A stretch of DNA of 64,000 nt from an uncultured Gammaproteobacteria bacterium (GTDB taxonomy: Bacteria; Pseudomonadota; Gammaproteobacteria; JAADHQ01), in NCBI GenBank assembly GCA_963807455.1, contig CAWECS010000010.1:31524-95523 (forward strand). The letters run 5' to 3'. This document shows positions 5,048-63,112 of the stretch, piece after piece. The position numbers were made by a program, and so were the translations under genes. The stretch's first letter is position 1. Each line of letters opens with the position of its first letter. The notes under the pieces were generated by a model. That model was not told where the DNA came from. It saw only the letters and a program-made list of their open reading frames with translations, and searched no databases.

Positions 5048-5086
5048 AGAAGATCTTAAATCGTTGCAATAGAATGTTTAAGATCA

Positions 5087-6644: not shown

Positions 6645-6656
6645 CATCAGCACTAA

Positions 6657-8247: not shown

Positions 8248-8253
8248 ATAACA

Positions 8254-29825: not shown

Positions 29826-29828
29826 GTT

Positions 29829-31179: not shown

Positions 31180-31182
31180 TCC

Positions 31183-33671: not shown

Positions 33672-34150
33672 AATCCATAAACATCGCCTTGTTAGCTTTT
33701 TTATTGTCTCTGATCTCGGTCAATGCCTATTCGGCATTCAATACCTACCAGTTTGACGATCCGATCAAGAAACAGCGCTTTGATAAATTGATCAATGAAT
33801 TACGTTGCACCGTTTGTCAGAACCAGACCATTGCCGGTTCCAATGCCGACCTCGCTAAAGATCTACGCGACAAAGTCTATAAAATGGTCAATGAAGGAAA
33901 AACAGAACAAGAGATCAAGGACTTTATGGTCGACCGTTTTACCGACTTTGTTTTATATAATCCTCCCTTGAAAGAAAGCACCTATCTGTTATGGTGGGGA
34001 CCCTTTTTTTTACTGGTGTTTGCCGTCATCATGCTGATTGTACAAATACGTAAACGCACGCAAGCACCATCCATCGACATCAACCCGCAGCAACATGAGC
34101 GCATTCAGCAACTGCTGAAGACAGAACAAAAGGATAACAACAATGATTAG
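33668..34150 (+). CDS. ccmH: Cytochrome c-type biogenesis protein CcmH
   Basis: LRCxxCQ motif (LRCTVCQNQTIAGSNADLAKDLR). C-terminal TM. Confidence 0.8.
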   Translation: MKSINIALLAFLLSLISVNAYSAFNTYQFDDPIKKQRFDKLINELRCTVCQNQTIAGSNADLAKDLRDKVYKMVNEGKTEQEIKDFMVDRFTDFVLYNPPLKESTYLLWWGPFFLLVFAVIMLIVQIRKRTQAPSIDINPQQHERIQQLLKTEQKDNNND

Positions 34151-40397: not shown

Positions 40398-40610
40398 TAT
40401 GCCCCCTAGCAGTCACAGATAAGCCAGCTGATTACAACTTATTTTTAAAATCGTAGTAGACAGATACTGTTAAAGCAATTACATACCATACTTCTACACG
40501 GCGTCGATGCAATGTCATTGACCCAGATCAATTACTGGTAAATTCTTGATAACTGTTATTTACAAAAAATAAGCCATCCTGACACCACAGAAAACAAGAC
40601 GGTCCCAAAT

Positions 40611-44027: not shown

Positions 44028-44084
44028 GTCTATACCTCTCAATTCTTTAAATTAATTATCTTGAAAACAATGATTCAATGCGAC

Positions 44085-44543
44085 TTAGGCAAACTGACTC
44101 ATGTCACAAGAATGAACATCATTGTCGAACAGCTTGTCGTAGGCAGCCAGATCAGCAGATGCAGCAGCAGGGCGACCGGCTTGAGGATCTGCAGAACCTT
44201 CAGCTGTTGTTCTAATCGGGAACTTAAAGCGTTTCTCGTTGCCGTTACGGAACTTGATCGTCCACATAATGGAGTTAGTTCCACGCAATGGCTGCACAGA
44301 ACCACCGAGAGGTACGATATCGGCGTAGTGACGACACTCAATTGCTTGCTGAGGACAGATCTTCACACAGGAATAACATTCCCAGCATTGTTCAGGCTCC
44401 TGGTTCCAGGCTTTCATTGCATGACCAGTTTCAGAGCCATCTTTATCAAGCTTCATCAGATCATGTGGACAGATATACATGCATGCAGTTTTGTCCTGAC
44501 CTTTACAGCCGTCACACTTGTCGGTACGTACGAATGTAGGCAT
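44085..44543 (-). CDS. aprB: Adenylylsulfate reductase beta subunit AprB (2x[4Fe-4S])
   Basis: MPTFVRTDKCDGCKGQDKTACMYICPHDLM... with two ferredoxin Cys clusters and the AprB C-terminal tail. Confidence 0.9.
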   Translation of the reverse strand: MPTFVRTDKCDGCKGQDKTACMYICPHDLMKLDKDGSETGHAMKAWNQEPEQCWECYSCVKICPQQAIECRHYADIVPLGGSVQPLRGTNSIMWTIKFRNGNEKRFKFPIRTTAEGSADPQAGRPAAASADLAAYDKLFDNDVHSCDMSQFA

Positions 44544-45012
44544 TTCGTTTTCTCCAAACGTTTACCGCGGTTTAAAAATCCCACTGGATTAATAGTGGCT
44601 CATGAGTTTTGATCTAATGGCCGTAAATCTTAATTCTTGTGTTGTAACGTCCTTAGCTGATGTCACTAAAATCAGCCTTTATCATCAGATAAGGACGCTG
44701 CCAGTCCGCCGAATGCGTGCTTTATTTCAGCCGATTCACGCCGATAACTTGATCCGGGACGCTAACCATATATATTTATACAGACAATGCAAAACAGTTA
44801 TATCTTTGCGGTAGCATAAATCTATCTTATTGAAGAAATGCTAATTTACGACCATATATGCTATTGTTTTTAATGACTATATAAATATTTTTATTTTTAA
44901 CTACCGATATATTAGAATATACTTATTTTATGCTATTCTAAATAATCTTAATTGGTAAGGCCATACGCTTGCCTGTACAGTATACCGACTCTTTTACTAG
45001 GTTATATAATTC

Positions 45013-47919: not shown

Positions 47920-47986
47920 CGAGTGACTAGTGGCTAGTAGCTAGGCTCTTTCTTTCCTCGCTACTAGCTACTCGATACTAGTCACT
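47917..47986. repeat. REP-like imperfect palindromic element in the soeA-soeB spacer
   Basis: tagCGAGTGACTAGTGGCTAGTAGCTAGG ... CCTCGCTACTAGCTACtcgatACTAGTCAC. The outer 8-bp stem TGACTAGT/ACTAGTCA pairs with an inner stem GGCTAGTAGCTAGG/CCTCGCTACTAGC. Confidence 0.7.
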
Positions 47987-48023
47987 TTTATATGCAATGA
48001 AATTTTATTAGGAACTGTCAAAC

Positions 48024-48755
48024 ATGACACAACTAGCATTAGTAATAGATTTAAACGTCTGCGTCGGCTGCCATGCCTGCGTGACCAGCTGTAAGCAATG
48101 GAACACATCTGGTCCTGCCGGTGCGATGAGTGATGATAACCCTTACGGCAAGGATCCCACCGGTACTTTTTTTAACCGCGTGCAATCATTTGAAATTGGC
48201 ACTTATCCGAACACAGAGCTGGTACATTTTCCTAAAAGTTGCTTGCATTGTGAAGAGCCTCCCTGTGTACCTGTTTGCCCGACGGGTGCCAGCTACAAGC
48301 GTGAGTCCGATGGTATTGTACTGGTCGATTATGACAAGTGTATCGGCTGCAAATATTGCTCATGGGCCTGCCCTTATGGTGCCCGTGAACTGGATGAACA
48401 TGAAAAGGTCATGAAAAAATGCACCCTTTGTGTCGATCGTATTTATGATGAATCATTACCTGAATCCGAGCGCAAACCAGCCTGTGTGCTGGCCTGCCCA
48501 ACCAATGCCCGTCTGTTTGGTGATGTACATGATTCTGAATCAGAAGTATCCGTGACCATCCGTGAATCCGGTGGCTATCAGCTGATGCCTGAGTGGGGTA
48601 CCAGCCCGGCCAACCATTATCTGCCCAGACGCAAGACCAAGATCAAGATTCATGAAGATGAATTGATACGCGCAGATAATCCGTTGAAGAAAGAAGGCCA
48701 GAAACCCAAGACGATTGTTGATGGTACTACTCTGGATGATATTACCAGTTGGTAA
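48024..48755 (+). CDS. soeB: Four-cluster ferredoxin subunit of the Mo-oxidoreductase (DmsB/PsrB-like; SoeB)
   Basis: 243 aa with four Cx2Cx2Cx3CP-type motifs. Confidence 0.65.
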   Translation: MTQLALVIDLNVCVGCHACVTSCKQWNTSGPAGAMSDDNPYGKDPTGTFFNRVQSFEIGTYPNTELVHFPKSCLHCEEPPCVPVCPTGASYKRESDGIVLVDYDKCIGCKYCSWACPYGARELDEHEKVMKKCTLCVDRIYDESLPESERKPACVLACPTNARLFGDVHDSESEVSVTIRESGGYQLMPEWGTSPANHYLPRRKTKIKIHEDELIRADNPLKKEGQKPKTIVDGTTLDDITSW

Positions 48756-48761
48756 CATCAT

Positions 48762-48887
48762 CAGTAGCGAGGAACTAGTAGCTAGTGGCTAGAAAAGTCA
48801 AAAGCAAAAGTCCTCAAAATAAATTATTTATTGAATTCAACGTAGCAAATGCCTTTCCTAGACACTAGCTACTAGCAACTAGCAACT
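48762..48887. repeat. REP-like inverted repeat pair in the soeB-soeC spacer, same family
   Basis: cAGTAGCGAGGaaCTAGTAGCTAGTGGCTAG --65 nt AT-rich-- CTAGACACTAGCTACTAGCAACTAGCAACT. Confidence 0.7.
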
Positions 48888-48890
48888 GGA

Positions 48891-49880
48891 GTGAAACGAC
48901 CCATGCATCCCGCATTTTCAGTCATATTTTTAACGACACTTATCGGTGCAGGCCAGGGTCTGTTCCTGGCACTGTTCACGGCACAAAGTTATGCTGCGGT
49001 AGGTTTTGTCAGTATACAAAACCCGCATCAGTTCTACGCCTACGGCAGTGGTATTGCTTTGCTGTTATTGATTGGCGGCCTGCTGGCTTCCTTTTTTCAC
49101 CTGGGACATCCTGAACGAGCCTGGCGCTCGGCAGCCCGCTGGCGCACATCCTGGCTGTCACGAGAAGTTATCGTGCTGCCGGCATTTATGTTTTTTGTTT
49201 TTATCTATGGCGTCATGCATTTTTTCGGCTGGGATCCCATCGTTATTGATACGCAGCAACCTCTGCAGGGCCAGCTCAGTTTATATGTTGGCATTATAGG
49301 CACAGTGCTTAGCTTTGCTTTATTTATCAGTACTGCGATGATCTACGCCTGCCTGAAATTCCTGCAGGAATGGCACAGCCCGTTAACTGTCATCAATTAT
49401 ACATTACTGGGAACAGCCTCAGGATTTACACTCGCAACCGCCTATTCCGCGATCATGGCACCTGAGCTGGTGACCCTGTTTGGCACCTGGGCAACTATTA
49501 TCACTCTGACAGCACTGGTTAGTCGTAGCGCTTCACTACTACGAAATTCACGCATCAAACATAAATCCAGCCTGCAAACGGCAATTGGTGTGCGTCATAC
49601 CAGGATTGAGCAGAAAGCCATGGGACTGATGGGTGGTTCTTTCAATACCCGCGAGTTTTTCCATGGCGCAAAAATGAGTGTATTTAAATCGATAAAATGG
49701 ATATTCCTGATATTGGTTTTCCTGGTGCCGGTCATTTTACTGACTATCGGTATGAAAAGCTCTAACCTCGATATACTGATTAGCTCGTTTGTTGTTCAAT
49801 ATATCGGCTTACTGGCAGAACGCTGGTTTTTCTTTGCACAGGCAAAACACCCTCAAAACCTGTATTACGAAACAGTGTAA
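48891..49880 (+). CDS. soeC: NrfD/PsrC-family membrane anchor subunit (SoeC)
   Basis: 329 aa with about 8 TM helices. The track start is GTG 48891. ATG 48903 (MHPAFSV...), with GGAGTG upstream, is the more likely start. Confidence 0.6.
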   Translation: MKRPMHPAFSVIFLTTLIGAGQGLFLALFTAQSYAAVGFVSIQNPHQFYAYGSGIALLLLIGGLLASFFHLGHPERAWRSAARWRTSWLSREVIVLPAFMFFVFIYGVMHFFGWDPIVIDTQQPLQGQLSLYVGIIGTVLSFALFISTAMIYACLKFLQEWHSPLTVINYTLLGTASGFTLATAYSAIMAPELVTLFGTWATIITLTALVSRSASLLRNSRIKHKSSLQTAIGVRHTRIEQKAMGLMGGSFNTREFFHGAKMSVFKSIKWIFLILVFLVPVILLTIGMKSSNLDILISSFVVQYIGLLAERWFFFAQAKHPQNLYYETV

Positions 49881-50071: not shown

Positions 50072-51679
50072 TTATTCAGAGCAAACAATTCTGTTACGCC
50101 CGGCTTTTTTCGCTTGATACAAGGCCTCATCCGCCAGTCGAATCAATTGATTTTCATCTAGATTGGCTGTGGCTTGCGCCAGACCGGCACTGAATGAACA
50201 GGTAAAGTTGCCATGCCCATGCAATTGCACAATAGCCGAAAATTGTTCGCGTAAATTATCAATAATAATATAAGCATCATCGACACTGGTATCAGTCAGA
50301 ATAATAGCAAACTCTTCACCACCATACCTTCCAATCAAATCTGACTTGCGTAATCGCTGTTGAAACAGGCGTGACAAGTTTTTGATGACCCTGTCTCCCA
50401 CTTGATGGCCATATTGATCATTCACCTGCTTGAACAAATCTATATCAATCATTGCAAATACCAATGGACTAGCCTGTCTGACAGACCGCATTACCTCGGC
50501 TTCCAGTCGCAGTTTTATAGTGACGTGGTTCAGCAGGCCCGTCAGGCTATCGTGATACATTAATGTACGCAGTTTCCTGAAACGTTCAACGCGCAAATTG
50601 ACCGCAATGACTAAGCCATCATCGGATACCGGCTTTTGCAAAAAATCATCCGCACCCATCTGCATGGCCGCCACCTGTTGTTGGGGATCTCTCTCCGTGG
50701 ACAAAAAGACAATGGGGATTCCGGCTAGCTCATCTTTCTGACGGATAATTTTGGCAGCCTCAAGGCCACTACATTCAGGCATGAAAATATCCATTAAAAT
50801 AAGCTCGGGATCGAATTCTTTTATGCTCTCAAATACAAGCGTTGGATCAGTTAATACTTCGGCCTGCATGCCTGAATTACGTAACACCAGGGCATAATGC
50901 TCAGCTAGTAGCGGCATATCATCTACCACGAGGATTCGATAGGGCTCAGTTTGCTTGCCTGCAATTAAAATTTCGAGACGATCCAACACCTCACTATAGT
51001 CAAGTGGCTTTTGGTAATAGCAGTCTCCACCCGCGCGTACTGCAGCAAGCCGGGCTTGCCAATCATCACGGGTAGACATAAAAATCACCGGAATAGGCGT
51101 ATCCAGCTGCTTGACAAAATCCATAACAAATTCAGGTCCGGTTAATTCACCCTCGGGCAGATTCACATCAACAATAAAGGCATCTGGAAGCCGATGTTGC
51201 ATGGCTTCAGAGGCCGTGCTGGAATCCGGAAAAACCTCCACTTGATAATCATAATGCATTAATTGGGTTTTTATTTCATCGGCCACCAATGGTTCATCTT
51301 CGATCACATAGACGCGAGGTGCGCCTCCTGTATTAACCTGCGCAACTTCACGTTGCTTGTTATCAATTTGATAAACAATATCAGGTTCATTGTGCGAGAG
51401 TTTTTCAATATCGTGTAGAGTCAGTGCGATGACATCCAGCTCATCGCTATCCGGCGTTTTATTATGCAAAGAAGTCAGCGTCTTCTCCAACTCCCGCGAT
51501 AGCTTACTCATGGCTGAATAACCAAAGGTGCCTGCTGAACCCGCCAGGTTATGGATATTCCTACTTAATTCCTTGAGTAAATCCGCATCCCTGGTGTCCA
51601 ACCACTGCTGCCACTGCTGCTGAATGGTAGCAATTTTGTCAGGCAGGACCGCGATATATTGCTCCTGCAGTTGCCTCAA
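50072..51679 (-). CDS. Hpt-REC-REC-GGDEF response regulator / diguanylate cyclase
   Basis: N-terminal Hpt (HNLAGSAGTFG). Two receiver domains (VIEDEPLVADE...D, ILVVDDMPLLAE...D). C-terminal GGDEF with intact RYGGEEF active site. Confidence 0.8.
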   Translation of the reverse strand: MRQLQEQYIAVLPDKIATIQQQWQQWLDTRDADLLKELSRNIHNLAGSAGTFGYSAMSKLSRELEKTLTSLHNKTPDSDELDVIALTLHDIEKLSHNEPDIVYQIDNKQREVAQVNTGGAPRVYVIEDEPLVADEIKTQLMHYDYQVEVFPDSSTASEAMQHRLPDAFIVDVNLPEGELTGPEFVMDFVKQLDTPIPVIFMSTRDDWQARLAAVRAGGDCYYQKPLDYSEVLDRLEILIAGKQTEPYRILVVDDMPLLAEHYALVLRNSGMQAEVLTDPTLVFESIKEFDPELILMDIFMPECSGLEAAKIIRQKDELAGIPIVFLSTERDPQQQVAAMQMGADDFLQKPVSDDGLVIAVNLRVERFRKLRTLMYHDSLTGLLNHVTIKLRLEAEVMRSVRQASPLVFAMIDIDLFKQVNDQYGHQVGDRVIKNLSRLFQQRLRKSDLIGRYGGEEFAIILTDTSVDDAYIIIDNLREQFSAIVQLHGHGNFTCSFSAGLAQATANLDENQLIRLADEALYQAKKAGRNRIVCSE

Positions 51680-52092: not shown

Positions 52093-52737
52093 TTAATTAT
52101 CGCCAGACCAGCTCATGCCTTTATGGCAATCATTACATGGACGCTTGCTATCCTCAAACTGCTTATGTAGCTTGCCATCACTATCGAAATCCGCCGGCAA
52201 TTGATGGGCGATACCCATATGACAGTCAATACAGGTCATATTCTCACTGATGGCGCGCTTGTGTTTCACATAGGATAATTTGCTTTGACTGGCCAGCGCC
52301 ATAGACTTTATGCTGTGACAATTTCGACATTCATGCGAGTCCGATTCCTGCATAGAACCCCACACATGAGTTGCCAATGTCAGACGCTTTGCCTCAAATT
52401 TCTCTTTGGTATCGATGCTACCTATAATTTTATGAAACAATTCGTTGGTCGCCTTGACCTTGCGGATAAATTTATGCGTCCATTCACGCGGCACATGACA
52501 ATCGGGACAGGTGGCTCGCACACCGGTTCGATTCTCATAATGAATGGTATTTTTGTATTCCGTGTAAACATTCTCTTTCATCTCATGACAGGATATACAA
52601 AATGCCTCCGTATTAGTCAGCTCCATGGCAGTATTGAAGCCACCCCAGAAAATGATGCCTAGAATAAAAAACAAAATTAATGCCATGACTGGATAACGCA
52701 GGTTAAAATTGAGTATTTTTTTTATAAAATTTCTCAT
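52093..52737 (-). CDS. NapC/NirT/NrfH-family membrane quinol dehydrogenase cytochrome, with five CXXCH motifs
   Basis: N-terminal TM. Motifs CISCH, CPDCH, CRNCH, CIDCH and an extra C-terminal CNDCH. 214 aa. Overlaps the upstream napF-like gene by 4 nt. Confidence 0.75.
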   Translation of the reverse strand: MRNFIKKILNFNLRYPVMALILFFILGIIFWGGFNTAMELTNTEAFCISCHEMKENVYTEYKNTIHYENRTGVRATCPDCHVPREWTHKFIRKVKATNELFHKIIGSIDTKEKFEAKRLTLATHVWGSMQESDSHECRNCHSIKSMALASQSKLSYVKHKRAISENMTCIDCHMGIAHQLPADFDSDGKLHKQFEDSKRPCNDCHKGMSWSGDN

Positions 52738-53318
52738 GATTCAGTTTTTGCCTGCAAGGAAGTGATCAATACGGCCTTAGGCTCGACAATACAGGCTTCC
52801 CTGCACAGGCCACAACCGACACAAGTGCTCTGATTAATTCTCGGCTTTTCCATTTCCCATATCAGTGTGTCCGGCAATGGACAACTTCCATAACAGGCGC
52901 CACACTCAGGTCCCGAATAAGGCAAGCAATCGGCTGTATTAATCATTGCCTTGGCCAGTAAGGGCAAAGTAATTTCATCATCCTCTTCAACATCATCTAT
53001 AAGTAGTGCCTTTGGCTCACATGCTTTCACACAAGGCCAGTCAGCACATAAGTGACAAGCCTTGTTGAGTAAATCCAATGCCGGAGTATTCACTACTTTG
53101 GCACCCAATCTGGCCTTGAGTGGAAATATCACCTGATGTGGACAAGCACTAATACATTCACCACAACGCGTACAGGTAAGCAGAAATTCCAGCTCCTCCA
53201 GCGCATAAGGAGGACGAATCCAGCGAACAGCATCGGCTTTAACTTTATCATCCGCTTCTTTTACAACTGTCTCGGTTGCTTTACTTATTGTCTGCCTGAA
53301 AAATGCTCTTCTATCCAT
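52734..53318 (-). CDS. napF: NapF-like ferredoxin-type protein (multiple 4Fe-4S)
   Basis: 194 aa with three or four Cx2Cx2Cx3CP-like motifs (CTRCGECISACP, CHLCADWPCVKACEP, CGACYGSCP, CVGCGLCREAC). Confidence 0.6.
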   Translation of the reverse strand: MDRRAFFRQTISKATETVVKEADDKVKADAVRWIRPPYALEELEFLLTCTRCGECISACPHQVIFPLKARLGAKVVNTPALDLLNKACHLCADWPCVKACEPKALLIDDVEEDDEITLPLLAKAMINTADCLPYSGPECGACYGSCPLPDTLIWEMEKPRINQSTCVGCGLCREACIVEPKAVLITSLQAKTES

Positions 53319-53391
53319 TGTTTGCCTCGTAGCCCTCTGTTTGCTCCTGATGAACCCTTGAGACTCACCACTTCGTTGCAGTAACTCACTA

Positions 53392-53462
53392 AGTAGCGAG
53401 TGGCGAGTAGCAAGGATTTAACCTGGTTTTCCTCGCTACTAGCCACTCGCCACCAGCTACTA
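53392..53462. repeat. REP-like palindromic element (same family as the soe spacers) between the napH-like and napF-like genes
   Basis: AGTAGCGAGTGGCGAGTAGCAAGG -15 nt- CCTCGCTACTAGCCACTCGCCACCAGCTACT then TTTTTT. Confidence 0.7.
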
Positions 53463-53468
53463 TTTTTT

Positions 53469-54878
53469 CTACATCCTCATCGTCATGGGCTGTGCCATTA
53501 ACCACAGGTCAAATCCATGCATTAATAATGCGAAAATAATAATCGGTAACACCCAGAGTTTACTGGTTGCGTGAAGGCTAAAGCCCCGATAACGAATCAC
53601 CTGTATCGCTAACCAGAAACCGAATAACATCAGACCAGCCTGCAACCAGAACAGCGTATCCTGCGAAATAATCATTTGCATATGACGCTGATGTTTTTCC
53701 ATCATACTTAACGGTTGTGTTCCTATGCCCAAAGGATTCAGGAACAGAGCCACAAGATCATGTGACTCCCTGACCAGGTGATTCAGGTTATGGGCAATAT
53801 GATAGGAAAATGCCAATGGCAGGGACACGAACGCCAGTGCTGAAAAAACCTGCCGGTATCGATTCCCTGCTGCCATCCATTTATTGGCCCAATACACCAG
53901 CAACGCATATATACCGATAGGTGCCAACATGATAAACAACATGCCCACACTAAAACTGAATAGTAACTGTCCCGAATCACCGACCCAGCGACCGAATTGA
54001 CTCATGCCATCGAACCAGAATGGCAACATGGTAATACCGTGAAAACTGGTCAGGGTCAGTAGACCAAGCATGAACCAGGCCTCATCCCAGCGTGGTCTTG
54101 CATCCTGCTTCACTTCGACACTCTGTGGACGCAGTTGCCAGGATATATTCTGATGCGGACAACTCTGAACACAATTGCCACAAGAGGTACAAAAGGTATT
54201 TTGTTTGAGCGTTCCCATGACCAGGTTGGTGGGGCACGGCTCGATCAGGTCGGATCCATGATAACATTCCAGTGTCTTACAATCCGCACACACATCGTGA
54301 TTAATAGGCCTCAATTCCACGGGTGCCAGCTGCGAATAATAACCTACCGTTCTCCCTACTGGACAAAAATAGTGACAAAATGCCTTGTTCTCGAATAACG
54401 CCAGGGAGATCGTTGCCATGACCACCATTAGCAATGATAGCAGTGCTGTCGCATAAGGGGCCGTGGTCACACCGACACCCAGTTCAAACCAGGTCAGCGC
54501 CATAAACATCAGCAAGGCAGGCCAGACATTGCGTAACCAGGCAGGCACTTTCAGGTTAAGACTGTTATTAGGCTTGGCCCGCTTCCATAGTCGCCGGCGT
54601 ACGAGCCAGGTGGCGATCGCATCCCATGGGCAGATGGCACACCAGGCCGAGCCCAGAAAGAAAATGACAATAATCAGACCTGCCCACCACAAATTCCAGG
54701 TCAATACCGTGGCCAGGTTTCGCTCCGGTACCTGGGTCCCCTGCAGTCCCGCGATGATCACTGTCATAAAGATAGTCACTGCCACTATTTTCAAAAACAA
54801 TAATGGCCATGGACTCGCATTCAGGAAGCGCACCAGCCATCCAATGAGCGGAATCTTGCCTAGGGACAGACTCAGCAT
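53469..54878 (-). CDS. NapH/MauN-family integral-membrane polyferredoxin, long form with an extra C-terminal membrane domain
   Basis: CxxxCP-type motifs in a membrane context (SAWCAICPW, FCHYFCPVG) plus two soluble ferredoxin motifs (CTSCGNCVQSCP). 469 aa. Confidence 0.65.
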   Translation of the reverse strand: MLSLSLGKIPLIGWLVRFLNASPWPLLFLKIVAVTIFMTVIIAGLQGTQVPERNLATVLTWNLWWAGLIIVIFFLGSAWCAICPWDAIATWLVRRRLWKRAKPNNSLNLKVPAWLRNVWPALLMFMALTWFELGVGVTTAPYATALLSLLMVVMATISLALFENKAFCHYFCPVGRTVGYYSQLAPVELRPINHDVCADCKTLECYHGSDLIEPCPTNLVMGTLKQNTFCTSCGNCVQSCPHQNISWQLRPQSVEVKQDARPRWDEAWFMLGLLTLTSFHGITMLPFWFDGMSQFGRWVGDSGQLLFSFSVGMLFIMLAPIGIYALLVYWANKWMAAGNRYRQVFSALAFVSLPLAFSYHIAHNLNHLVRESHDLVALFLNPLGIGTQPLSMMEKHQRHMQMIISQDTLFWLQAGLMLFGFWLAIQVIRYRGFSLHATSKLWVLPIIIFALLMHGFDLWLMAQPMTMRM

Positions 54879-55560
54879 GCCTTGCCTTGACAGGCACCCT
54901 GGCTAACAACGCCCATACTGATACCAGCAACATAAAGGCCCAGACCAGATAGACCAGATACTCAGGCAAGCCCGGATGGCTCATCACCATCAGGCTTTTA
55001 TCCTGCTGAGCCGTCTGTATCTTCCCTCTCAGCAAACGTTTTCTTTGTGCAATATTGACCAGCACGAGTACAGAAAAAATCGCCATCGCGGCTATACCAA
55101 TCGGACCAATGGCTGAATCCTGCCCTATCTTTAATGGAAAATCGATCGTGTAGGGCTCACCTTGCGCGTGAAAATTTGCGCTGATAATATATTTACCCGC
55201 TTCATTGATCAGAAAGCCCTGCCGGTAAACTCCATCATCAATATTCTGCGTTCCCAAAGTTTCTCGATGGCCACCGAACCAGCGATCATCACGTATTGTA
55301 AATTCGACCTGGCCATCAAATGGCTTGCCACTGTCACGATGCGTAGCATACAGATTCAAGCGCCCCTGCTTACCCGGCTCGGGAAAGGCGGGATAAACCA
55401 TGTAGGTGACGTAGTAATTACCTATCTGGGTTTCAACCTGCATACTGGGCGGGGTGTTGGAATCCTCACTCAGGCTGTAAGCAGGTCGACCGAGGACATG
55501 GTGTGCGCTAACACTGTCACTAACTAAAATTGCCATCAAGCAGATCAGTGTTCGAATCAT
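54879..55560 (-). CDS. Periplasmic protein with signal peptide and His-His motif, ending in a TM helix. Its frame runs without a stop into the napH-like gene; the 3' boundary is unresolved and a frameshifted fusion is possible.
   Basis: The track ORF 54568–55560 is protein-like only for its first ~225 aa (MIRTLICLMAILVSDSVSAHHVLGRPAYS...TM LVYLVWAFMLLVSVWALLA). The remainder overlaps the napH-like gene out of frame. Confidence 0.4.
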
Positions 55561-55631
55561 CTATTTAAAAACCTTTATGTAAATTAAATAATATTAAGCT
55601 CTGGCGCATATCATCACTTTATTTTTACCTG

Positions 55632-56264
55632 TCATCGTATCCATTTATGCCGTTGACCAGCACCATGCTTTGCTATTGTACCATCCTCACGATTGACTAC
55701 CCAGATAGGCAGACTCGGGTGGGGACAGACTTCAACACATAAACCGCAACCGACACAACCATCACGCACAACCGGCTTATAGAAATTAGCGAAATCAAAT
55801 CCGATCGCTCGATCCCCCAATGGGCATATCGCCACACAGGCACCACAGACGCCCTGATCAACCCAGGGATAACAAGCACTCTGATCGATTTGCGCAATAC
55901 CCATATCGACCTCGAGTCTTGGTGTCGGTGTCAGCGATTCTGTCGGGCATACGTCCATACATTTATCACACAGAATACAGGCCTTTTGTTCAGGATCAAT
56001 ATAGGGGGTATTGATTTTATCTCCGCCTTCACGGGTATAAAAACGGATACAACGTGGAGGGCAAACTTCACCACAGAGGCCGCAGCCAATACAGGCTGAT
56101 ATAAATGCTTGATCATCTTTCAATGCACCCGGCGGGCGTAGACGCCGACGCACATCCGCCTGTGCCGAGGGTGAAATAACCCTTGAAAAACCGAATGGCA
56201 ATGACGCCGCCAGTAGCACGACCAGGGAGCGTGCTGTTGTTGTCAGAAAACTGCGTCTTTTCAT
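55632..56264 (-). CDS. napG: NapG/MauM-family periplasmic 4x[4Fe-4S] ferredoxin with Tat signal, second copy
   Basis: MKRRSFLTTTARSLVVLLAASLP Tat leader. Four Cx2Cx2Cx3CP motifs. Confidence 0.75.
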   Translation of the reverse strand: MKRRSFLTTTARSLVVLLAASLPFGFSRVISPSAQADVRRRLRPPGALKDDQAFISACIGCGLCGEVCPPRCIRFYTREGGDKINTPYIDPEQKACILCDKCMDVCPTESLTPTPRLEVDMGIAQIDQSACYPWVDQGVCGACVAICPLGDRAIGFDFANFYKPVVRDGCVGCGLCVEVCPHPSLPIWVVNREDGTIAKHGAGQRHKWIR

Positions 56265-56278
56265 GATTGCATGCTCAA

Positions 56279-57307
56279 TTAGACGTTTTGATCCGTCGCT
56301 GTTTTTGTCTGCTCACGTTTATACGTTCTACTCAGGTGACCAGGGCCCTGATATGGCTGGTCTTTTATACCTAGTTTGAATTCAAACGCATCGGTCGGAC
56401 AAATCGCAATGCAGGCCGTGCAGTTATTACACTCTTGGCCGAAATCATCACGCAACGGGTCCAGGCCAAACTCACAGATAGCATTACACTTGGCACAATC
56501 ATTACAATCCTCGACCACACGCTGTATACGCAACAAACGAAAGCGCCCCAGAAGTGAATACAATGCCCCTCCCGGGCACAGATAACGACAGAAACCTCGC
56601 CGTGATACAAACAGATCAAATAACAGCGTGGCAAAGAAAAACACAGCGCCGGCACCAAAACCACCCAGCACCACATGACTGTAACCACCTAAAGCGATGC
56701 CATAATAAATTTCCCGCCCGACAATGGCCGGTGGATAAATAGCCGCCGTCAGCACGGCACCTGTTAATGCAGATAACACGAGTCCAACCACCAATACCAA
56801 ATACTTGAAACGGCGGTCGAGACGGCGATTACCCGTATGCAAACCCAGCTTATGTAACAAGACGGCCAGATTGGTATTCAATTCATACAAGAACGTCGCT
56901 GGACATATCCAGCCACAATAAAAACGTCCTAGTAACATCGTCAATATCAACGGTATCAAAGCGGTCAATGCAAACGGCCAATAGACTGTCATTGCGGCTG
57001 CCGTCTGCGATACGACTGCCAAAGGATCGCTTAGCTTCAATCCAAAAAATGTCCCTGACCAGGTATTACCTTTTATATTATCCAACTGTGTTTCCGGATC
57101 GGATACAAATGGCGAAGTCAGTGTCTCCATGACGGTATAGATCTGTTTCTCACCTGGGGACAACAGGTCATAGGCATGTGAGGCTATGTAGGTTTGATAC
57201 AAATGAATAAAAGGGAGTAACAACAGCATTAAAAACACGAACGTCAACACAAACCAACGTAACTTGTTTATATGACGTATATGAAAAATCTTATTCGCAG
57301 ATGACAT
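56279..57307 (-). CDS. napH: NapH-family membrane-bound quinol dehydrogenase ferredoxin
   Basis: 342 aa. Membrane CxxxCP motifs (FYCGWICPATF, FCRYLCPGGALY) plus two C-terminal 4Fe-4S motifs (CNDCAKCNAICEF, CNNCTACIAICP). Confidence 0.8.
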   Translation of the reverse strand: MSSANKIFHIRHINKLRWFVLTFVFLMLLLLPFIHLYQTYIASHAYDLLSPGEKQIYTVMETLTSPFVSDPETQLDNIKGNTWSGTFFGLKLSDPLAVVSQTAAAMTVYWPFALTALIPLILTMLLGRFYCGWICPATFLYELNTNLAVLLHKLGLHTGNRRLDRRFKYLVLVVGLVLSALTGAVLTAAIYPPAIVGREIYYGIALGGYSHVVLGGFGAGAVFFFATLLFDLFVSRRGFCRYLCPGGALYSLLGRFRLLRIQRVVEDCNDCAKCNAICEFGLDPLRDDFGQECNNCTACIAICPTDAFEFKLGIKDQPYQGPGHLSRTYKREQTKTATDQNV

Positions 57308-57356
57308 AATAATTAACTCAAGCTTTCAGCTTAACGCTGGCTGGCGGATAACATGC

Positions 57357-57935
57357 TTAACCGTAATCCGGGATGATACGAATAGCCTGGGGGATTTGAA
57401 TACATGAGCGTTCACACAAACCGCAGCCGACACAACCATCAAGCACATGCGGTTGCTCTAGCATGCCGATACGGATGGCCACGTCCTGTAACTTACAGGC
57501 ACGATAACAGACCCCGCAGGTTTTGCCTTGAAATGACAGGCACAGGGTCTCATCGACGCGCGCCTTGCCCATTTTGACCTTACTGACAATATCTTCGAAT
57601 GTCTTTTTAATCGGCTGGATAGCCCCGGATGGACACACATCTCCGCATTTCATGCACAAAATACAGGCCTTTTCACGCGGAACAATAAAGGGTGTATCCA
57701 GCACTTGAGTGCCATTGGCCAGTCCGAAATAGGTAATACAACGATTGGGACATACCTCGCCACATTGGCCACAGCGAATGCATTGTGATTGAAATTCTTC
57801 TTCAGGCAATGCACCTGGTGGGCGCAAAAAGCGGATACCCGTCTTGTTGACCCTGGCTTCGGTTACGCTTACCGGCAATGTCACCGCAAGCGCAGCGCCA
57901 TAGATCAGGTCAGCGAGAAATTGTCGTCTTTTCAT
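57357..57935 (-). CDS. napG: NapG-family periplasmic ferredoxin with Tat signal
   Basis: Start at ATG 57935 (MKRRQFLADLIYGAALAV). Four 4Fe-4S motifs. Confidence 0.8.
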   Translation of the reverse strand: MKRRQFLADLIYGAALAVTLPVSVTEARVNKTGIRFLRPPGALPEEEFQSQCIRCGQCGEVCPNRCITYFGLANGTQVLDTPFIVPREKACILCMKCGDVCPSGAIQPIKKTFEDIVSKVKMGKARVDETLCLSFQGKTCGVCYRACKLQDVAIRIGMLEQPHVLDGCVGCGLCERSCIQIPQAIRIIPDYG

Positions 57936-58030
57936 TTTAATTCCGGGACCAGAAACGAGAGACCGGGTAACAGGCAAGCCCTGTAATACAAACCTGATCC
58001 CTCGTTGCTAATACCTAGTCCCTTTGCACG

Positions 58031-60733
58031 TTAGACTTTTTCGATCCGAACAGCCAATTTCTTGAAATCCACCTGACCTGAAACGACATCCCATACACGG
58101 CTGGATGTATTGTTCACTAGCCATTTGTTCTTCTTCGGGTCAGCACTGTCAGCGACTGACAGGTTCCATGGGCTGAACATATAACCACGTGGCACGACGT
58201 TACGCGCTGGCTTAACCAAACTATCAATACCCACCTGTGCCTTGGCCTCGTAGTGGCCTCGACGGGAAATCAATCGAACCTTGTCGCCGTCCTTGATACC
58301 CAGATCCTTGGCATCATCGGGATGCATTTCAACGTACATCTCTGGCACCAGGCGGCGTGTGGTGGGGCTACGATTAGACTTGGCGGTATGGAAGTGCTCA
58401 TACACCACACCGAGTCCGAGCCAGTAAGGAAATTTATCCTTGGATACCTTATCCCATTTCTTGCCGCGTTCCTTTTCATCGGGCAGATCAGGGGTCAACC
58501 CCATATCACGTGCCTGTTTCAGCAACGGGATATTGTCGATGGTGTAGACACCCTCCTTGCTACCGAACTCCATCAGCTTTTTGGTGATCTCTTCACGTCT
58601 GCTGTAGTCCTGCAGACATAGCTTGATATGCACCTTGCCGTCCTTGGTGCGGAAGTAGCCATAGGGTTTGTTCTTCCACTGGCCTTCCTGCATCATGTAG
58701 CGACGTTTGGTGCCACCATTCTTGGCGATCTCATAGGTCGGTGCAGGCCATTGAATGCCGCGCAGATCACGTAACTGCTGATACGGTGTCTTGCCATCCA
58801 GCTTTTCAACTTCAAGCAACCCGGTCAGGTCGGTATCGGTACCTTCTGATGCCGCCACGATATCGCGGAAAATCTCCTGCGAATCATAGAAACCATCTTT
58901 CTGGCGTTTCCATGGAAAGATCTTGTCTGCGTTCAGTCCGAGCAAATGGGCGATCTCACGTCCCTTATCGATAACCATATCCATATCGGGACGACATCCT
59001 GGAGGTGGCTCAGCCGCCTTCTCGACACGATTAATGCGACGTTCGGAACTGATATAGGTACCATCTACCTCACCCCAGGTTGCGGCCGGGAAAATCACAT
59101 CGGCATACAGGTTGTTAGGGGCATGACGATAGATTTCCTGCACCACATTAAAGGTCTTCGACATCGCCGGACGAATCAGATTTTGCTGGTCTGGCAGGTC
59201 GATATGCGTTGCATACACAAACACCATCGCCTTCACATCGTCTTTCAGTGCACGCTCCATCATGCCAATGGCATACCCTGGATTTTTCGCATTCATCGCA
59301 GTAATCAGGTTCTTTTCCGGTACACGCCAATGTTTAGCCATGTGCTTACGATGTGACGCATTCTTCAGTGGTTGATTGAATGGCAGACGCCCGGTCAGAC
59401 CACCGGTAAAACGTTCACCCATCGCATTCGGTTGTCCGGTCATCGAGAACGGGCCACAACCCGGCTTGGCCAGGTTACCGGTCATGGTCAGCAGGTTAAC
59501 GATTGAAATGGTGTTGTGCTGGCCATGGATGTGCTGGTTATATCCGATACCCCACATGATGATGACACCGCCATAACCCTTGCCTTCCTGCTTACCTTTA
59601 CTACGTTCCAGACGCTTACGTGTGGCATCGGCAAACATGCCGGCGACCTTGCGAATCATCGCTGGCGAAACATCATGGCCAGGTCCACCCATGCGGTCCT
59701 GAACCTGTTCCGGGCTATAGTCTTTCAATACACCATCGGTATATTCCTTCCAGCCGGTGGTGTGCTGCTTGAGAAAATCCCAGTCAACAATGTCCTTGTG
59801 GTCCTTGAGGATGACATGTGCCAGCGAGTTCAGGAAACTGATGTCGCCATTAAGGATCGGTACATGTACCGAATTCTTTGGATTAATATCCTCATAGCCC
59901 TTGGACGTGCCGGTATATCGCGGATCAACCACCACAGTCGGGATATCTTTCTTGCGCTTGTGATCAGCCGCACGCCAGAAAATAATCGGATGCGCCTCAC
60001 GCGCATTATGACCAAAGTGCATAATCATGTCGCACAGTTCGATATCATCATAAGCCAGCGGCGGTGTATCCGAGCCCAGTGTCGCGAAATATCCGGTGAC
60101 TGCCGAGGTCATACACATACGCGCATTGGCCTCGATGGTATTGGAACCCAGCACACCCTTCATAAACAGGTTTTCCAGATACTGGCCTTCCACCGTCAAC
60201 TGACCGGAGCCATACAGAGCAATCGAGTTACCTGTATATTTTTTGGCAAGATGCGCCAGCTTGTGAGCGACCATATCAGAGGCCTTTTCATAAGGCACCC
60301 GCACAAAATGCTCTTCATCAAATGAGCCTTTGGTCTTACTGGTATATTCAAGGTTGCCATGACCCTTCTTGTTCCACTCGGCCCAGACATCCTTACGTAC
60401 ATAACTTTCGCCTTCCATACGGTCAACATAGATCGGTTCTGCCGCGGTCAGCCCCTTGATACATTGCAAACCATAGTTGGTGGGGTGATCCTTGTCCGGA
60501 CGCATGGAGACAATCTTGCCGTTCTCCGCCTGGATGATGGTGCCACAACCGACACCGCAATAAGGACATTGAGCAATAGCTGTCTTGCGTTCAGTTGATG
60601 CCTTGGCCGCACTTATTGGCGCTGCCTCAAGCTCAGGATTAGCGCCTACCATCAAACCGGCTGCACCGGCGGACCCTGTAATGAAAGCACTACTTTTTAG
60701 AAAATCTCTGCGGTTCATTTTGATACGTTTCAT
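58031..60733 (-). CDS. napA: Tat-exported molybdopterin oxidoreductase of the NapA (periplasmic nitrate reductase) family, long form
   Basis: RRDFLK Tat motif. N-terminal CPYCGVGCG cluster. NapA-type Mo-ligand context NARMCMTSA, IGYNQHIHG, PFSMTGQPNAMG. C-terminal FKKLAVRIEKV. 900 aa. Confidence 0.7.
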   Translation of the reverse strand: MKRIKMNRRDFLKSSAFITGSAGAAGLMVGANPELEAAPISAAKASTERKTAIAQCPYCGVGCGTIIQAENGKIVSMRPDKDHPTNYGLQCIKGLTAAEPIYVDRMEGESYVRKDVWAEWNKKGHGNLEYTSKTKGSFDEEHFVRVPYEKASDMVAHKLAHLAKKYTGNSIALYGSGQLTVEGQYLENLFMKGVLGSNTIEANARMCMTSAVTGYFATLGSDTPPLAYDDIELCDMIMHFGHNAREAHPIIFWRAADHKRKKDIPTVVVDPRYTGTSKGYEDINPKNSVHVPILNGDISFLNSLAHVILKDHKDIVDWDFLKQHTTGWKEYTDGVLKDYSPEQVQDRMGGPGHDVSPAMIRKVAGMFADATRKRLERSKGKQEGKGYGGVIIMWGIGYNQHIHGQHNTISIVNLLTMTGNLAKPGCGPFSMTGQPNAMGERFTGGLTGRLPFNQPLKNASHRKHMAKHWRVPEKNLITAMNAKNPGYAIGMMERALKDDVKAMVFVYATHIDLPDQQNLIRPAMSKTFNVVQEIYRHAPNNLYADVIFPAATWGEVDGTYISSERRINRVEKAAEPPPGCRPDMDMVIDKGREIAHLLGLNADKIFPWKRQKDGFYDSQEIFRDIVAASEGTDTDLTGLLEVEKLDGKTPYQQLRDLRGIQWPAPTYEIAKNGGTKRRYMMQEGQWKNKPYGYFRTKDGKVHIKLCLQDYSRREEITKKLMEFGSKEGVYTIDNIPLLKQARDMGLTPDLPDEKERGKKWDKVSKDKFPYWLGLGVVYEHFHTAKSNRSPTTRRLVPEMYVEMHPDDAKDLGIKDGDKVRLISRRGHYEAKAQVGIDSLVKPARNVVPRGYMFSPWNLSVADSADPKKNKWLVNNTSSRVWDVVSGQVDFKKLAVRIEKV

Positions 60734-60750
60734 AATCTTGATCCTTTGTC

Positions 60751-61410
60751 TTAGTGCTTGATGCTGCGCATATAGGTGATGATGTCATCAATTTCTTTAT
60801 CGGTGAGGTTAGCCATCGCTGCCGGCCCCGAGTAACCGATCATTCGAGTATTGGATCGACCGTATTTAATTGTTTGACGTATAAAGCCGTCACTGGCCTT
60901 GGTCAGGAAGCTGGCACTACCAATCGCGGTGCCGGTACCCCCTTCAAGGTAACCATCACCATTGACGCCATGACAAGTTGAACAAATCTGGTCAAACCAT
61001 AATTTACCCAGGCGCTCATCACCCAGGGCCTGCGGCTGCTTGTCTATTTGTGCTGACTGATTCGGCATTTTCTCGAAAGAACGCAGATAAGCCAGGATGG
61101 CATCAATACCACTTTTGCCAAGATGGGCAAACGGTGGCATGCCCGTGCCTGTGCGCCCATCGCGAATGGTTCCTTTGAGGAATTTGTCTGATGCCGTCGC
61201 CAGTAACTCTGGATTGGTCAATGAAGGCGCAATGCCGGCTTTACCGATGGCATCAGCCTGATGACAGAATATGCAATTCTGCTGGTAGAGTTTTTTACCC
61301 TGTTCAATGTTCGCACTGTCTTCTGCAAAAACGGCCGGCGAACTACCAACGCTGGCCAGCATGGCTAATACCAGTGTCAGGCCCTTGTTCTTCAATATAT
61401 ATTGCACGCG
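60751..61410 (-). CDS. Class I dihaem cytochrome c (c4/c553-like), first gene of the nap-like operon
   Basis: Two CXXCH (CIFCH, CSTCH), each with a downstream Met ligand. Start at GTG 61410 with a perfect AAGGAG 7 nt upstream. The track start at 61509 is unlikely. Confidence 0.7.
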   Translation of the reverse strand, partial: RVQYILKNKGLTLVLAMLASVGSSPAVFAEDSANIEQGKKLYQQNCIFCHQADAIGKAGIAPSLTNPELLATASDKFLKGTIRDGRTGTGMPPFAHLGKSGIDAILAYLRSFEKMPNQSAQIDKQPQALGDERLGKLWFDQICSTCHGVNGDGYLEGGTGTAIGSASFLTKASDGFIRQTIKYGRSNTRMIGYSGPAAMANLTDKEIDDIITYMRSIKH

Positions 61411-61926
61411 AGCGCTCCTTTTTCTTTTGTTTGAGAGATTCAATAACAGCGTGCTGTTACAGTGCGCTCGCAGACACTGCGACATATTGACGCAGGTCAA
61501 TAAACGCACTGAAAATGTGCAAACAAATCCATTTTTTGCAGCAAATCAGTGCCTGCAACTATTAACTCTGCTTAAACGTTTCACACGATCATGGATATCT
61601 GACAGGCTTTTTTAGACGATTATTTATTTTATATTCATATAGTTATACAATTTATGACTTCATATGAATAAACAAATTCCGGATTGCTTATTCGCCATAT
61701 TTATAAAGGCATTACTAATCTAATGGCAAATAGCGGATCATCCTGCCCCACTCGGCCGGCTTCCTCTGTTATAGTTCGCTCACATTATTGGCCTGACAAG
61801 ATTCGGCGAAGGTGCATGAGAACACTCCCCGCCGCAGCCATACTCTGTCATAAGCGTCAGAGAGCAGTGTTGTTACCAATAGATGCCAATAACATTACAT
61901 TTTGATATCACTAAGAGGATAGACAC

Positions 61927-63112
61927 ATGATCAAGCCTATTGGATCAGACGAACTGATGCCGTTGTTTGTTTATGACACTGATAAACATGATGCTATAAG
62001 CAAAGAAGCCGAGGGCTTGCCTTCGGTCATTATCAGTTCAGCTGCTGCGGGTAATGCCGTCATGATGGGAGGTGGTTACTTCACACCGCTGACCGGTTAC
62101 ATGAACGTTGCCGATGCGGTCAGTGTCGCTGAATACCATGAAAACCACATCTGGCCAATTCTTTCCGGTGCCGGTTTTAAACCTGGTTGAAAATGCCGAT
62201 GGCATTAAAGTCGGTAGCCGCATCGCCCTGCGTGACCCCAATGTCGATGGCAATCCTGTCATTGCCGTGCAAACAGTTGAAGCCATCGAAACCGTCACTG
62301 ATGAACAAATGGCTCACATGACCGACAAGGTCTATCGTACTGACGATATGGAACACCCTGGTGTTAACGCCTTCAATACAGTGGGCCGTATAGCTATTTC
62401 AGGCCCAATTGAGGTTCTCAACTTCAGTTACTTCAACACTGAATTCCCGGATACTTTCCGCACTGCGGTTGAAATACGCAACGAGATTATGGAACACGGC
62501 TGGAAGAAGGTCGTAGCCTTCCAGACCCGTAACCCCATGCATCTGGCTCACGAAGAACTTTGCCATATGGCCATGGAACGCCTGGGTTGTGACGGCCTGG
62601 TTATCCATATGTTACTGGGCAAGCTCAAGCCTGGCGATATCCCTGCACCTGTACGTGATGCAGCTATTCGTAAAATGGTTGAAGTCTACTTCCCGCCCAA
62701 TAGCGCCATGGTCACCGGCTACGGTTTCGACATGCTCTATGCCGGCCCACGTGAAGCAGTGTTGCATGCCTATTTCCGTCAAAATATGGGCGCAACGCAC
62801 TTTATCATTGGCCGTGATCACGCCGGTGTTGGTGATTACTATGGTGCCTTCGATGCACAAACCATCTTCGAAACTGATGTACCTGCAGGTGCGCTGGAAA
62901 TTGAAATGTTTATGGCTGACCATACTGCCTGGTCGAAGAAGTTGGACAAGGTTGTCATGATGCGCGAAGTTGACGATCACGCGAAAGAAGACTTTGTGCT
63001 CTTGTCGGGAACCAAGGTACGCGAAATGCTCGGTAATGGCGAAGCGCCACCGAAGGAATTTTCACGTCCTGAAGTAGCCAAAATATTGATTGATTATTAC
63101 CAGAGCCTATAG
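61927..63112 (+). CDS. sat: Sulfate adenylyltransferase (dissimilatory ATP sulfurylase) Sat, interrupted by a 1-nt frameshift at ~62134–62137
   Basis: Track ORFs 61927–62190 (MIKPIGSDELMPLFVYD...NAVMMGGGYFTPLTGYMNVADA...) and 62108–63112 (...GQFFPVPVL...QTRNPMHLAHEEL...GRDHAGVGDYYG...) are in different frames. Dropping one base in gaaTACCatg gives a continuous ~395-aa Sat. Confidence 0.8.

Follow-up and report, generated by a model that had tools for sequence, protein, structure and literature searches.

A conserved Nap-like molybdoenzyme operon of a separate lineage, a putative periplasmic respiratory reductase, in an uncultured gammaproteobacterium

Results

Gene content of the operon

The window analysed here, a 64,000-nt stretch of contig CAWECS010000010.1 from an uncultured Gammaproteobacteria bacterium, carries an operon of nine tightly packed open reading frames (ORFs), all oriented in the same direction on the minus strand at 52093-61407, which encode a molybdenum (Mo) oxidoreductase and a set of partners resembling those of Nap, the nitrate reductase of the periplasm. 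The genes were called from the minus-strand ORFs, from NCBIfam and Pfam profile scans, and from motif counts. Read in the direction of transcription, the products are a dihaem cytochrome c, the catalytic Mo subunit, a NapG-like ferredoxin (G1), a NapH-like membrane protein (H1), a second NapG-like ferredoxin (G2), a membrane-anchored protein designated HisP, a long membrane iron-sulfur protein (H2long), a NapF-like ferredoxin (F), and a cytochrome of the NapC/NirT family. The original prediction, made from the letters of this DNA, had listed all nine in the same order, and its remark that the arrangement fits neither the enterobacterial napFDAGHBC nor the epsilonproteobacterial napAGHBFLD layout was correct as well; the operon matches none of the published types napEDABC, napDAGHB, napCMADGH and napAGHBFLD (PMC13223375).

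The absence of NapB and NapD, claimed at the same time, was also borne out. A six-frame census of CxxCH motifs revealed no small NapB-like dihaem ORF anywhere in the 64 kb, and no profile of the NapB family was matched in the Pfam and NCBIfam scans, the sole dihaem ORF being a class-I c4/CcoP-like protein. The gaps within the cluster are too small for an ORF of the size of NapD (the search was not exhaustive for the remainder of the window and did not extend to the remaining genome), and no small ORF of that size recurs beside the cluster in 80 related loci. These are the best 80 of 424 loci matched by the Mo subunit in a one-genome-per-species collection, and synteny was read in them.

The catalytic subunit lies outside the NapA family

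The catalytic subunit (58031-60733, minus strand, as are all genes of the operon) is a 900-aa protein of the molybdenum-bis(pyranopterin guanine dinucleotide) (Mo-bisPGD)/[4Fe-4S] type, with the twin-arginine translocation (Tat) motif NRRDFLK and the Pfam domains Molybdop_Fe4S4, Molybdopterin and Molydop_binding. Its placement in the NapA family by the original prediction did not hold. The NCBIfam NapA models TIGR01706 and NF010055 gave 319.6 and 330.3 bits, far under their cutoffs of 930.55 and 904, whereas a genuine NapA representative (P0299) scored 1512 and 1546 bits against the same models. The score for the alpha subunit of formate dehydrogenase (Fdh) was similar (324.7 bits, cutoff 666), and those for the assimilatory nitrate reductases (Nas) NasA and NasC were 276 and 226 bits against cutoffs of 1000 and 1100.

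The closest sequence in the PDB was NapA of Desulfovibrio desulfuricans, with 27% identity, and the same protein was the top fold match of the AlphaFold model (predicted template modelling score 0.86), with an E-value of 2.9e-51 and a template modelling (TM) score of 0.88. Heterodimeric NapAs followed at 0.82, and then Fdh. The predicted local distance difference test (pLDDT) values of this model are below 50 in the active-site loops at residues 433-442 and 778-797, which are therefore of low confidence. In a search of 1.84 billion representatives the family was found to be isolated: the next relatives shared 54%, 50% and 40% identity with it, and all others 37% at most.

In a neighbour-joining tree of 121-127 representatives with 100 bootstraps, the Mo-subunit family and its 54%, 50% and 40% relatives formed one clade with a bootstrap value of 100. 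The canonical Nap clade, with Tat signals and a Cys-Met pair, received 96, and a sister relationship between the two clades only 27. The Cys-His formate dehydrogenases formed the outgroup. A grouping of the Mo subunit with formate dehydrogenases, which had been named as the outcome that would overturn the original prediction, was thus not seen in the tree, and the ligand residues are Cys-Met, not Cys/Sec-His. With scores below all cutoffs, the ligand and Tat features described, and a clade of its own, the Fdh, Nas and canonical Nap identities were all rejected, and the Mo subunit is best described, from its sequence, as a Nap-like scaffold outside the NapA family as currently defined.

Two long-branch relatives of about 940 aa with Tat signals, P0332 and P0368, are grouped with this clade. 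The Mo-ligand Cys is missing from both, which read 'RLSD' and 'RLRD' at this position, while a 'G-x-VYEHY' patch is kept; the two may represent a ligand-free or non-catalytic offshoot.

Active-site residues

The Cys-Met-Arg set of nitrate reductases is in place. Among 40 diverse members, which are 49-91% identical to the Mo subunit of the window, the [4Fe-4S] motif (C56, C59, C63 and C91) and the electron-transfer residue K93 are invariant, and so are the Mo-ligand pair C207-M208 ('RMCMTS'), Gln434, and the catalytic R441 ('MGERF'). The Cys-Met pair aligns with Cys140/Met141 of D. desulfuricans NapA, and R441 with its Arg354. Across 81 members, 459 of the 900 positions are at least 98% conserved.

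The surroundings of this centre differ invariantly from those of nearly all Nap, Nas and Fdh representatives (residue roles taken from PMC13223375). In NapA, the pterin patch reads T-G-R-V-L-E-H-W-H-T and includes Arg720 and Trp725 of the Escherichia coli enzyme (PMC13223375). In the Mo subunit, 'GLGVVYEHFHT' stands in place of 'TGRxxxxWHT', so that the Arg is replaced by Val and the Trp by Phe, both invariantly in the family and in the representatives P0241-P0243. Three further changes are family-invariant: the equivalent of D. desulfuricans Asp355 is lost to Phe ('GERF' in place of 'GxRE/D'), that of Glu156 to Thr, and that of Met308 to Ile, whereas the equivalent of Asp155 is kept ('GSDTPP'). 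An inspection of the Mo ligand and the channel residues, which the original prediction had proposed, therefore gave a divided answer, with the Cys-Met ligand and the catalytic Arg retained and the channel equivalents of Glu156 and Asp355 lost.

The dihaem cytochrome and the pentahaem NapC homologue

The first gene of the operon (60751-61407) encodes a 218-aa dihaem class-I cytochrome c of the c4/CcoP-like kind, with a signal peptide of the general secretory (Sec) pathway and two CxxCH motifs. The gene as first called is real, but its start had been placed at 61410 or 61509, and the true start is the GTG at 61407, which lies behind an AAGGAG ribosome-binding site. The Pfam families Cytochrom_C and Cytochrome_CBB3 were each matched twice, and the best relatives in the PDB are the dihaem domains of CcoP and of (actinobacterial) QcrC. 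The gene is separated from that of the Mo subunit by 17 nt in the window, and the pair is adjacent in nearly all related loci and in every phylum examined. Because of this adjacency, we propose that the cytochrome may be a stoichiometric subunit and a non-orthologous replacement of NapB, standing in for it as the electron-donor subunit.

At the other end of the operon (52093-52737) lies the NapC/NirT-family membrane-anchored quinol dehydrogenase, which matched Pfam Cytochrom_NNT (PF03264) with 246.9 bits at a gathering threshold of 24.1, and scored 271.5 bits against the NCBIfam subfamily model, below its cutoff of 310.6. The pentahaem character ascribed to it at the outset was confirmed: it contains five CxxCH motifs instead of four, and the fifth, 'RPC(N/G)DCHK', is kept in 49 of 51 relatives.

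Ferredoxins and the second set of NapG/NapH-like genes

G1 (57357-57935) is a NapG-like periplasmic poly-ferredoxin with the Tat signal MKRRQFL (RRxFL), 17 Cys residues and three CxxCxxCxxxC motifs, and scored 131.8 bits against NCBIfam NapG (cutoff 269). H1 (56279-57307), a NapH-like putative membrane quinol-dehydrogenase subunit, has two CX3CP motifs (CGWICP and CRYLCP), two CxxCxxCxxxC motifs and hydrophobic helices, and scored 135.3 bits against NapH (cutoff 234). The second NapG-like periplasmic ferredoxin, G2 (55632-56264), carries the Tat signal MKRRSFL (RRxFL). F (52734-53318) is a NapF-like poly-ferredoxin that scored 68 bits against NapF (cutoff 102) and 103 bits against NapG; it has a vestigial RR motif, and no hydrophobic segment or export signal was found in it, in keeping with a cytoplasmic protein.

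These genes had been read as a duplicated GH module. A second set is indeed present, yet it is not a duplication specific to this genome. G1 and G2 are 40% identical, F and G1 35%, and H1 and H2long only 25% over 98 aa, from which it follows that the supposed duplicate is really a NapGH-like pair together with a different accessory set: G2 is, by its sequence relationship, an old paralogue of G1, H2long, which is optional and goes together with HisP, is another kind of protein, and the arrangement is kept across phyla.

HisP and H2long

HisP (54994-55560) has a signal peptide followed by a beta-sandwich domain and, at the C-terminus, a membrane helix; it matched no family. None of its 1474 homologues has a Pfam domain, and some are named 'YtkA-like' in UniRef. 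The mature N-terminus HHVLGRP, with its His-His pair, and about 55 other positions are invariant. The AlphaFold model (pLDDT 84) predicts the beta-sandwich followed by the membrane helix, and its top fold match in the PDB is the copper-resistance protein CrdA of Helicobacter pylori (TM score 0.77).

H2long (53469-54990; main ORF 53469-54878, 469 aa) had been described as a long NapH-like protein; the protein is there, but it is only distantly NapH-like, as its low identity to H1 and a weak match to the NapH model (E-value 2e-10) indicate, and a sequence search of the PDB returned nothing meaningful. Its features assign it to the polytopic iron-sulfur membrane proteins of the NapH/CcoG superfamily. 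Taken together with the CrdA-like fold predicted for HisP, this weakly suggests a metal-handling or redox accessory role for the two proteins.

The junction between the two genes is anomalous in the window. In relatives H2long starts at 'M(V/I)MTHPGLP', which corresponds here to the ATG at 54990. Comparison of the reading frames (which included loci L027 and L030) and DNA alignment revealed two +1-nt insertions within 54870-55000 relative to L001 and L002. The first, in the tail of HisP, abolishes the stop codon, so that the ORF continues in frame into the first helix of H2long, and it is owing to this anomaly that the HisP ORF runs on to 54568. The second, near 54876-54895 at a CAAGG-CAAGG repeat, cuts the first helix off from the main H2long ORF (ATG at 54878). 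The same 330-aa HisP-fusion ORF is found in the public record. The anomaly reflects either an assembly or sequencing error or the recent inactivation of an optional gene.

Distribution and synteny

The best 80 of the 424 Mo-subunit matches are 79-91% identical to the protein of the window, and more than 120 clusters of relatives were found at 82-95% identity. In public records, the relatives are named 'molybdopterin oxidoreductase', 'molybdopterin-dependent oxidoreductase' or 'anaerobic selenocysteine-containing dehydrogenase'; some are mislabelled as assimilatory nitrate reductase, which is wrong for a Tat-exported protein, and a few are called 'nitrate reductase NapA'. The taxa among the 80 best include Thioalkalispiraceae, Sulfuriflexus, Thiohalobacter, Granulosicoccaceae, Ca. 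Parabeggiatoa, Motiliproteus, Kiloniellaceae, Hyphomicrobiaceae and Rhodospirillaceae, and the carriers comprise marine sulfur oxidisers as well as metagenome-assembled genomes (MAGs) labelled as coming from oxygen-minimum-zone, hydrothermal-vent and sponge samples. Among isolates, at least part of the system is present in Sulfuriflexus mobilis, Thiogranum longum and Thiohalobacter, which have HisP homologues, and in Microaerobacter geothermalis.

The consensus module of the 80 loci is [C] - cytochrome - Mo - G1 - H1 - [G2] - HisP - [H2long] - F - [C], where C stands for the NapC homologue, found at either end of the cluster, and brackets mark genes that vary. Wherever a locus extends far enough, G1 adjoins the Mo subunit, and the NapG/NapH-like pair always follows the Mo gene; G2 is absent from about one quarter of the loci, and H2long is likewise optional. 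The NapF-like gene is kept at the distal end, and F and the pentahaem NapC usually accompany the core. One complete 2.5-Mb genome has only cytochrome-Mo-G-H-G2.

The same core context surrounds more distant relatives of the Mo subunit, namely a metagenomic protein with 54% identity, that of the Bacillota isolate M. geothermalis with 50%, and that of a myxobacterial-type 8-Mb genome (Myxococcota). A Reichenbachiella MAG (Bacteroidota) has the order Mo-cytochrome-G-H-HisP-H2long-F, and its HisP retains the His-His mature N-terminus. For the 40%-identical relative (P0243) the flanking sequence is too short to show the gene context. By all these comparisons the system is distinct, ancient and strongly conserved, and is widespread, occurring in hundreds of species. 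No prior description of the Mo-subunit clade was found in searches of the full-text literature, and both a NapA phylogeny (PMC12769810) and a 2026 review of Nap (PMC13223375) name no operon types beyond the four classical ones, so the lineage is apparently undescribed. The Nap system of Bacillus azotoformans (PMC3475470) was considered as a candidate for the same system and rejected, as it has NapB and NapD.

Promoter and neighbouring genes

An FNR/DNR-type box, TTGACGCAGGTCAA, lies at 61487-61500, with its centre 86 nt upstream of the operon's first start codon. It is a perfect palindrome of the form TTGAY-N4-RTCAA, to which no strand is assigned, and one of only two perfect FNR/DNR sites in the window. 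In 47 of 74 relatives a perfect TTGAYN4RTCAA occurs no more than 450 nt upstream of the cluster's first gene (cytochrome or NapC); the background density of such sites is 0.045 per kb.

Genes that recur beside the cluster are moaA (11 loci) and a regulator of the Fnr/Crp family with an N-terminal Cys cluster (8 loci); in one Sulfuriflexus locus, genes for Rrf2, a globin and a reductase lie upstream. Neither a chlorite dismutase nor a Rieske subunit nor any other accessory gene specific to a substrate was found to recur beside it. In 12 relatives (loci L026, L032, L035, L040, L042, L044, L055, L056, L058, L061, L064 and L070) the cluster is adjoined by a gene whose secreted product, about 790 aa long, has a thioredoxin domain of the DUF255/DsbH type at its N-terminus; this gene follows the NapF-like gene except in L040, in which it is found upstream of the cluster.

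In the window, the operon is flanked by sulfur-oxidation genes, with aprA and a soeABC-like trio of Mo, iron-sulfur and membrane subunits at 42096-49880, and sat at 62108-63112. The same position between soeABC/aprA and sat was seen in the closest relatives (L001, L002, L015, L016 and L021), not in most others. The link to sulfur oxidation that had been suggested thus applies to the closest relatives; as a general property of the system it was rejected, being present in only 5-6 of the 80 loci, and the cluster occurs as well in diverse alpha- and gammaproteobacterial families, Bacteroidota and Myxococcota.

Other features of the window were recorded in passing. The second perfect FNR/DNR box, TTGACCCAGATCAA (40518-40531), lies about 120 nt upstream of a gene for an 801-aa cytochrome (37992-40412, minus strand) with 11 CxxCH motifs and weak similarity to the selenite/tellurite-operon cytochrome ExtM. 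On the plus strand, 4154-11137 holds a run of multihaem cytochromes with 9, 12, 7 and 11 CxxCH motifs and weak similarity to decahaem proteins of the DmsE/MtrA type, followed by an 819-aa ORF with no family match; this region looks like a porin-cytochrome cluster for extracellular electron transfer. Cytochrome c maturation genes, of which a CcmF/NrfE-type haem lyase and CcmI were identified, lie at 28462-35405 (plus strand) and fit the many c-type cytochromes of the window. Directly downstream of the operon, 50072-51679 (minus strand) encodes a 535-aa protein that according to NCBIfam contains two receiver domains and ends in a GGDEF domain, and whose N-terminal region by eye resembles a histidine phosphotransfer domain.

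Discussion

Proposed function

The reading we favour, with somewhat better than even confidence, is that the operon encodes a periplasmic respiratory reductase induced by oxygen limitation, which would be Nap-like in its working and belong to a separate, conserved and uncharacterised lineage. In the mechanism that we propose, quinol would be oxidised by NapH-NapG, by the pentahaem NapC, or by both, and its electrons would pass to the dihaem cytochrome, a docking donor that would replace NapB. This cytochrome, putatively of the His/Met type, could also draw electrons from the bc1/cytochrome c pool, an electron source that has been shown for the Nap of Campylobacter jejuni (PMC6195509). Electrons would then reach Mo by way of the [4Fe-4S] cluster and reduce an oxyanion there. 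F may take over from the absent NapD in helping cytoplasmic maturation, while G2, HisP and H2long would form an optional membrane and periplasmic accessory module, which, like CcoG/CcoH and CrdA-type proteins, may handle a metal.

The most probable substrate, though an unproven one, is nitrate, because, to our knowledge, every characterised Cys-Met enzyme of the Nap/Nas branch reduces nitrate, because nitrate is common to all habitats of the carriers, and because of the physiology of isolates: M. geothermalis uses nitrate and nitrite for respiration (PMC9119079), and the carrier of a HisP homologue, S. mobilis, grows anaerobically (PMC6397845).

Several points weigh against the reading of a Nap-like reductase. 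The Mo subunit fails the curated NapA models, reaching about one third of their cutoffs. It has lost the pterin-patch Arg that is common to Nap, Nas and Fdh, together with two acidic channel residues (the equivalents of D. desulfuricans Glu156 and Asp355), so its substrate or potential may differ. NapD is absent from the cluster, though the published types of Nap operon include napD. Partners of the high-potential c4/CcoP-like kind are found more typically with enzymes feeding electrons to oxidases, and FNR-type boxes also drive microaerobic genes. The tree was built by neighbour joining on unnamed representatives, not by maximum likelihood with characterised references. Lastly, M. geothermalis also possesses narGHJI (PMC9119079), and its physiology consequently does not single out the Mo enzyme.

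Alternative explanations

The same architecture and direction of electron flow could serve to reduce something other than nitrate, be it an oxyanion or an oxide (chlorate, iodate, selenate or nitrite, for example), an alternative that we regard as unlikely. While no substrate-specific accessory gene (chlorite dismutase, Rieske subunit) recurs beside the cluster, nitrate is the one acceptor common to its very varied habitats, and the characterised Cys-Met enzymes of the branch are nitrate reductases throughout, the surroundings of the active site do differ invariantly from those of all Nap/Nas representatives in the acid after the catalytic Arg, in Glu156, in Met308 and in the pterin-patch Arg. 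The clade is also separate from that of Nap, and the identity of at least 79% between alpha- and gammaproteobacterial members is an extreme conservation that suggests a specialised constraint. Another substrate would further agree with the presence of Nar in M. geothermalis (PMC9119079) and with the promiscuity of NapA towards chlorate and perchlorate (PMC12769810). A reversal of the electron flow appears improbable to us. Here, the enzyme would oxidise a reduced inorganic compound in the periplasm and pass the electrons through the dihaem cytochrome to a cbb3 oxidase, with NapGH and NapC employed for reverse electron flow to quinone. The class-I CcoP/c4-like partner, as found with periplasmic dehydrogenases, the position between soeABC/aprA and sat in the window and its closest relatives, and the activation of microaerobic respiration genes by FNR would all suit such an enzyme. 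However, this linkage to sulfur genes is confined to a few close relatives, and sulfur-oxidation neighbours are missing in diverse alpha- and gammaproteobacterial MAGs, Myxococcota, Bacteroidota and the Bacillota isolate; moreover, NapC, NapGH and NapF are known as parts of reductive Nap systems, and the active site shows the Cys-Met-Arg set of nitrate reductases, neither the His of Fdh nor the ligand-free site of Aio.

There is very little probability, in our estimate, that the operon is an ordinary nap operon, or a paralogue of a canonical napDAB located elsewhere, which owes its oddness to gene shuffling. The accessory genes do match Nap models, and a few members are automatically labelled 'nitrate reductase NapA' or 'assimilatory nitrate reductase', but the NapA score, at about a third of the cutoff where a genuine NapA reaches 1546 bits, the separate clade (bootstrap values of 100 for it, 96 for Nap and 27 for their sisterhood), the loss of the pterin-patch Arg, and the replacement of NapB by an unrelated cytochrome fold all count against this, as does the arrangement kept across phyla, which is not that of a recent rearrangement. 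A periplasmic formate dehydrogenase is scarcely credible: although the Fdh-alpha score of 325 bits is as high as that for NapA, the Mo-ligand Cys is followed by Met and not by His, all representatives with Cys-His form the outgroup, and no partners of the FdhB or FdhC type are present.

Implications

A more far-reaching reading, which we put forward tentatively, is that the operon defines an unrecognised class of respiratory enzyme without canonical Nap function. It could be a cytochrome-c-coupled and potentially energy-conserving high-affinity nitrate reductase, which would pass electrons directly from the bc1/Sox cytochrome pool to nitrate, or a reductase of some other marine oxyanion, and in either case HisP and H2long would constitute a new metal-dependent accessory module. 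The failure of the curated NapA, NarG and Nas models to recognise the Mo enzyme is an annotation gap. If the enzyme does reduce nitrate, gene-based surveys of the nitrogen cycle miss a major type of nitrate reductase, and its class-I cytochrome partner would suggest a different, possibly energy-conserving, electron route; if its substrate is another compound, a new respiration would be defined.

Comparison with known systems

The accessory proteins recall CcoG/CcoH (FixG/FixH) and the copper proteins of the CrdA/YtkA type, given that H2long belongs to the CcoG superfamily and that HisP is a membrane-anchored beta-sandwich protein for which CrdA is the best solved fold. They differ in that neither HisP nor H2long significantly matches the CcoG, FixH or YtkA models, and the Ig-like fold of HisP is a generic one. 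With NasA, NasC and NarB, the Mo subunit shares the Cys-Met pair and the 'NAMG' motif before the catalytic Arg, and its members are often automatically annotated as Nas. The Nas enzymes are cytoplasmic, however, with no Tat signal and with ferredoxin or NADH as partners, whereas the Mo subunit is predicted to be Tat-exported and linked to a cytochrome, has an FNR box upstream, and falls in a separate clade.

The monomeric NapA of D. desulfuricans (napCMADGH) resembles the present system in lacking NapB and in being accompanied by NapC, NapG and NapH. It is a protein of 755 aa in which the TGR patch is present along with the acidic residues of the channel, and it is encoded with NapD and the tetrahaem NapM, while the Mo subunit described here is about 900 aa long, with an extra segment at approximately residues 590-765. 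From the NapAB systems of E. coli (napFDAGHBC) and of Wolinella succinogenes and C. jejuni (napAGHBFLD), the operon differs by the absence of NapD and NapL, by a class-I c4/CcoP-like cytochrome instead of NapB, by the fifth haem of its NapC and the additional conserved HisP, H2long and G2, and by a catalytic subunit that lies outside the NapA clade and has lost the 'TGR' Arg and two acidic channel residues. Common to both are a Tat-exported Mo-bisPGD/[4Fe-4S] subunit with the catalytic Arg and the Cys-Met pair, a dihaem cytochrome as partner, a putative quinol dehydrogenase of the NapG/NapH type, a NapC/NirT cytochrome, a NapF ferredoxin, and an FNR-type box.

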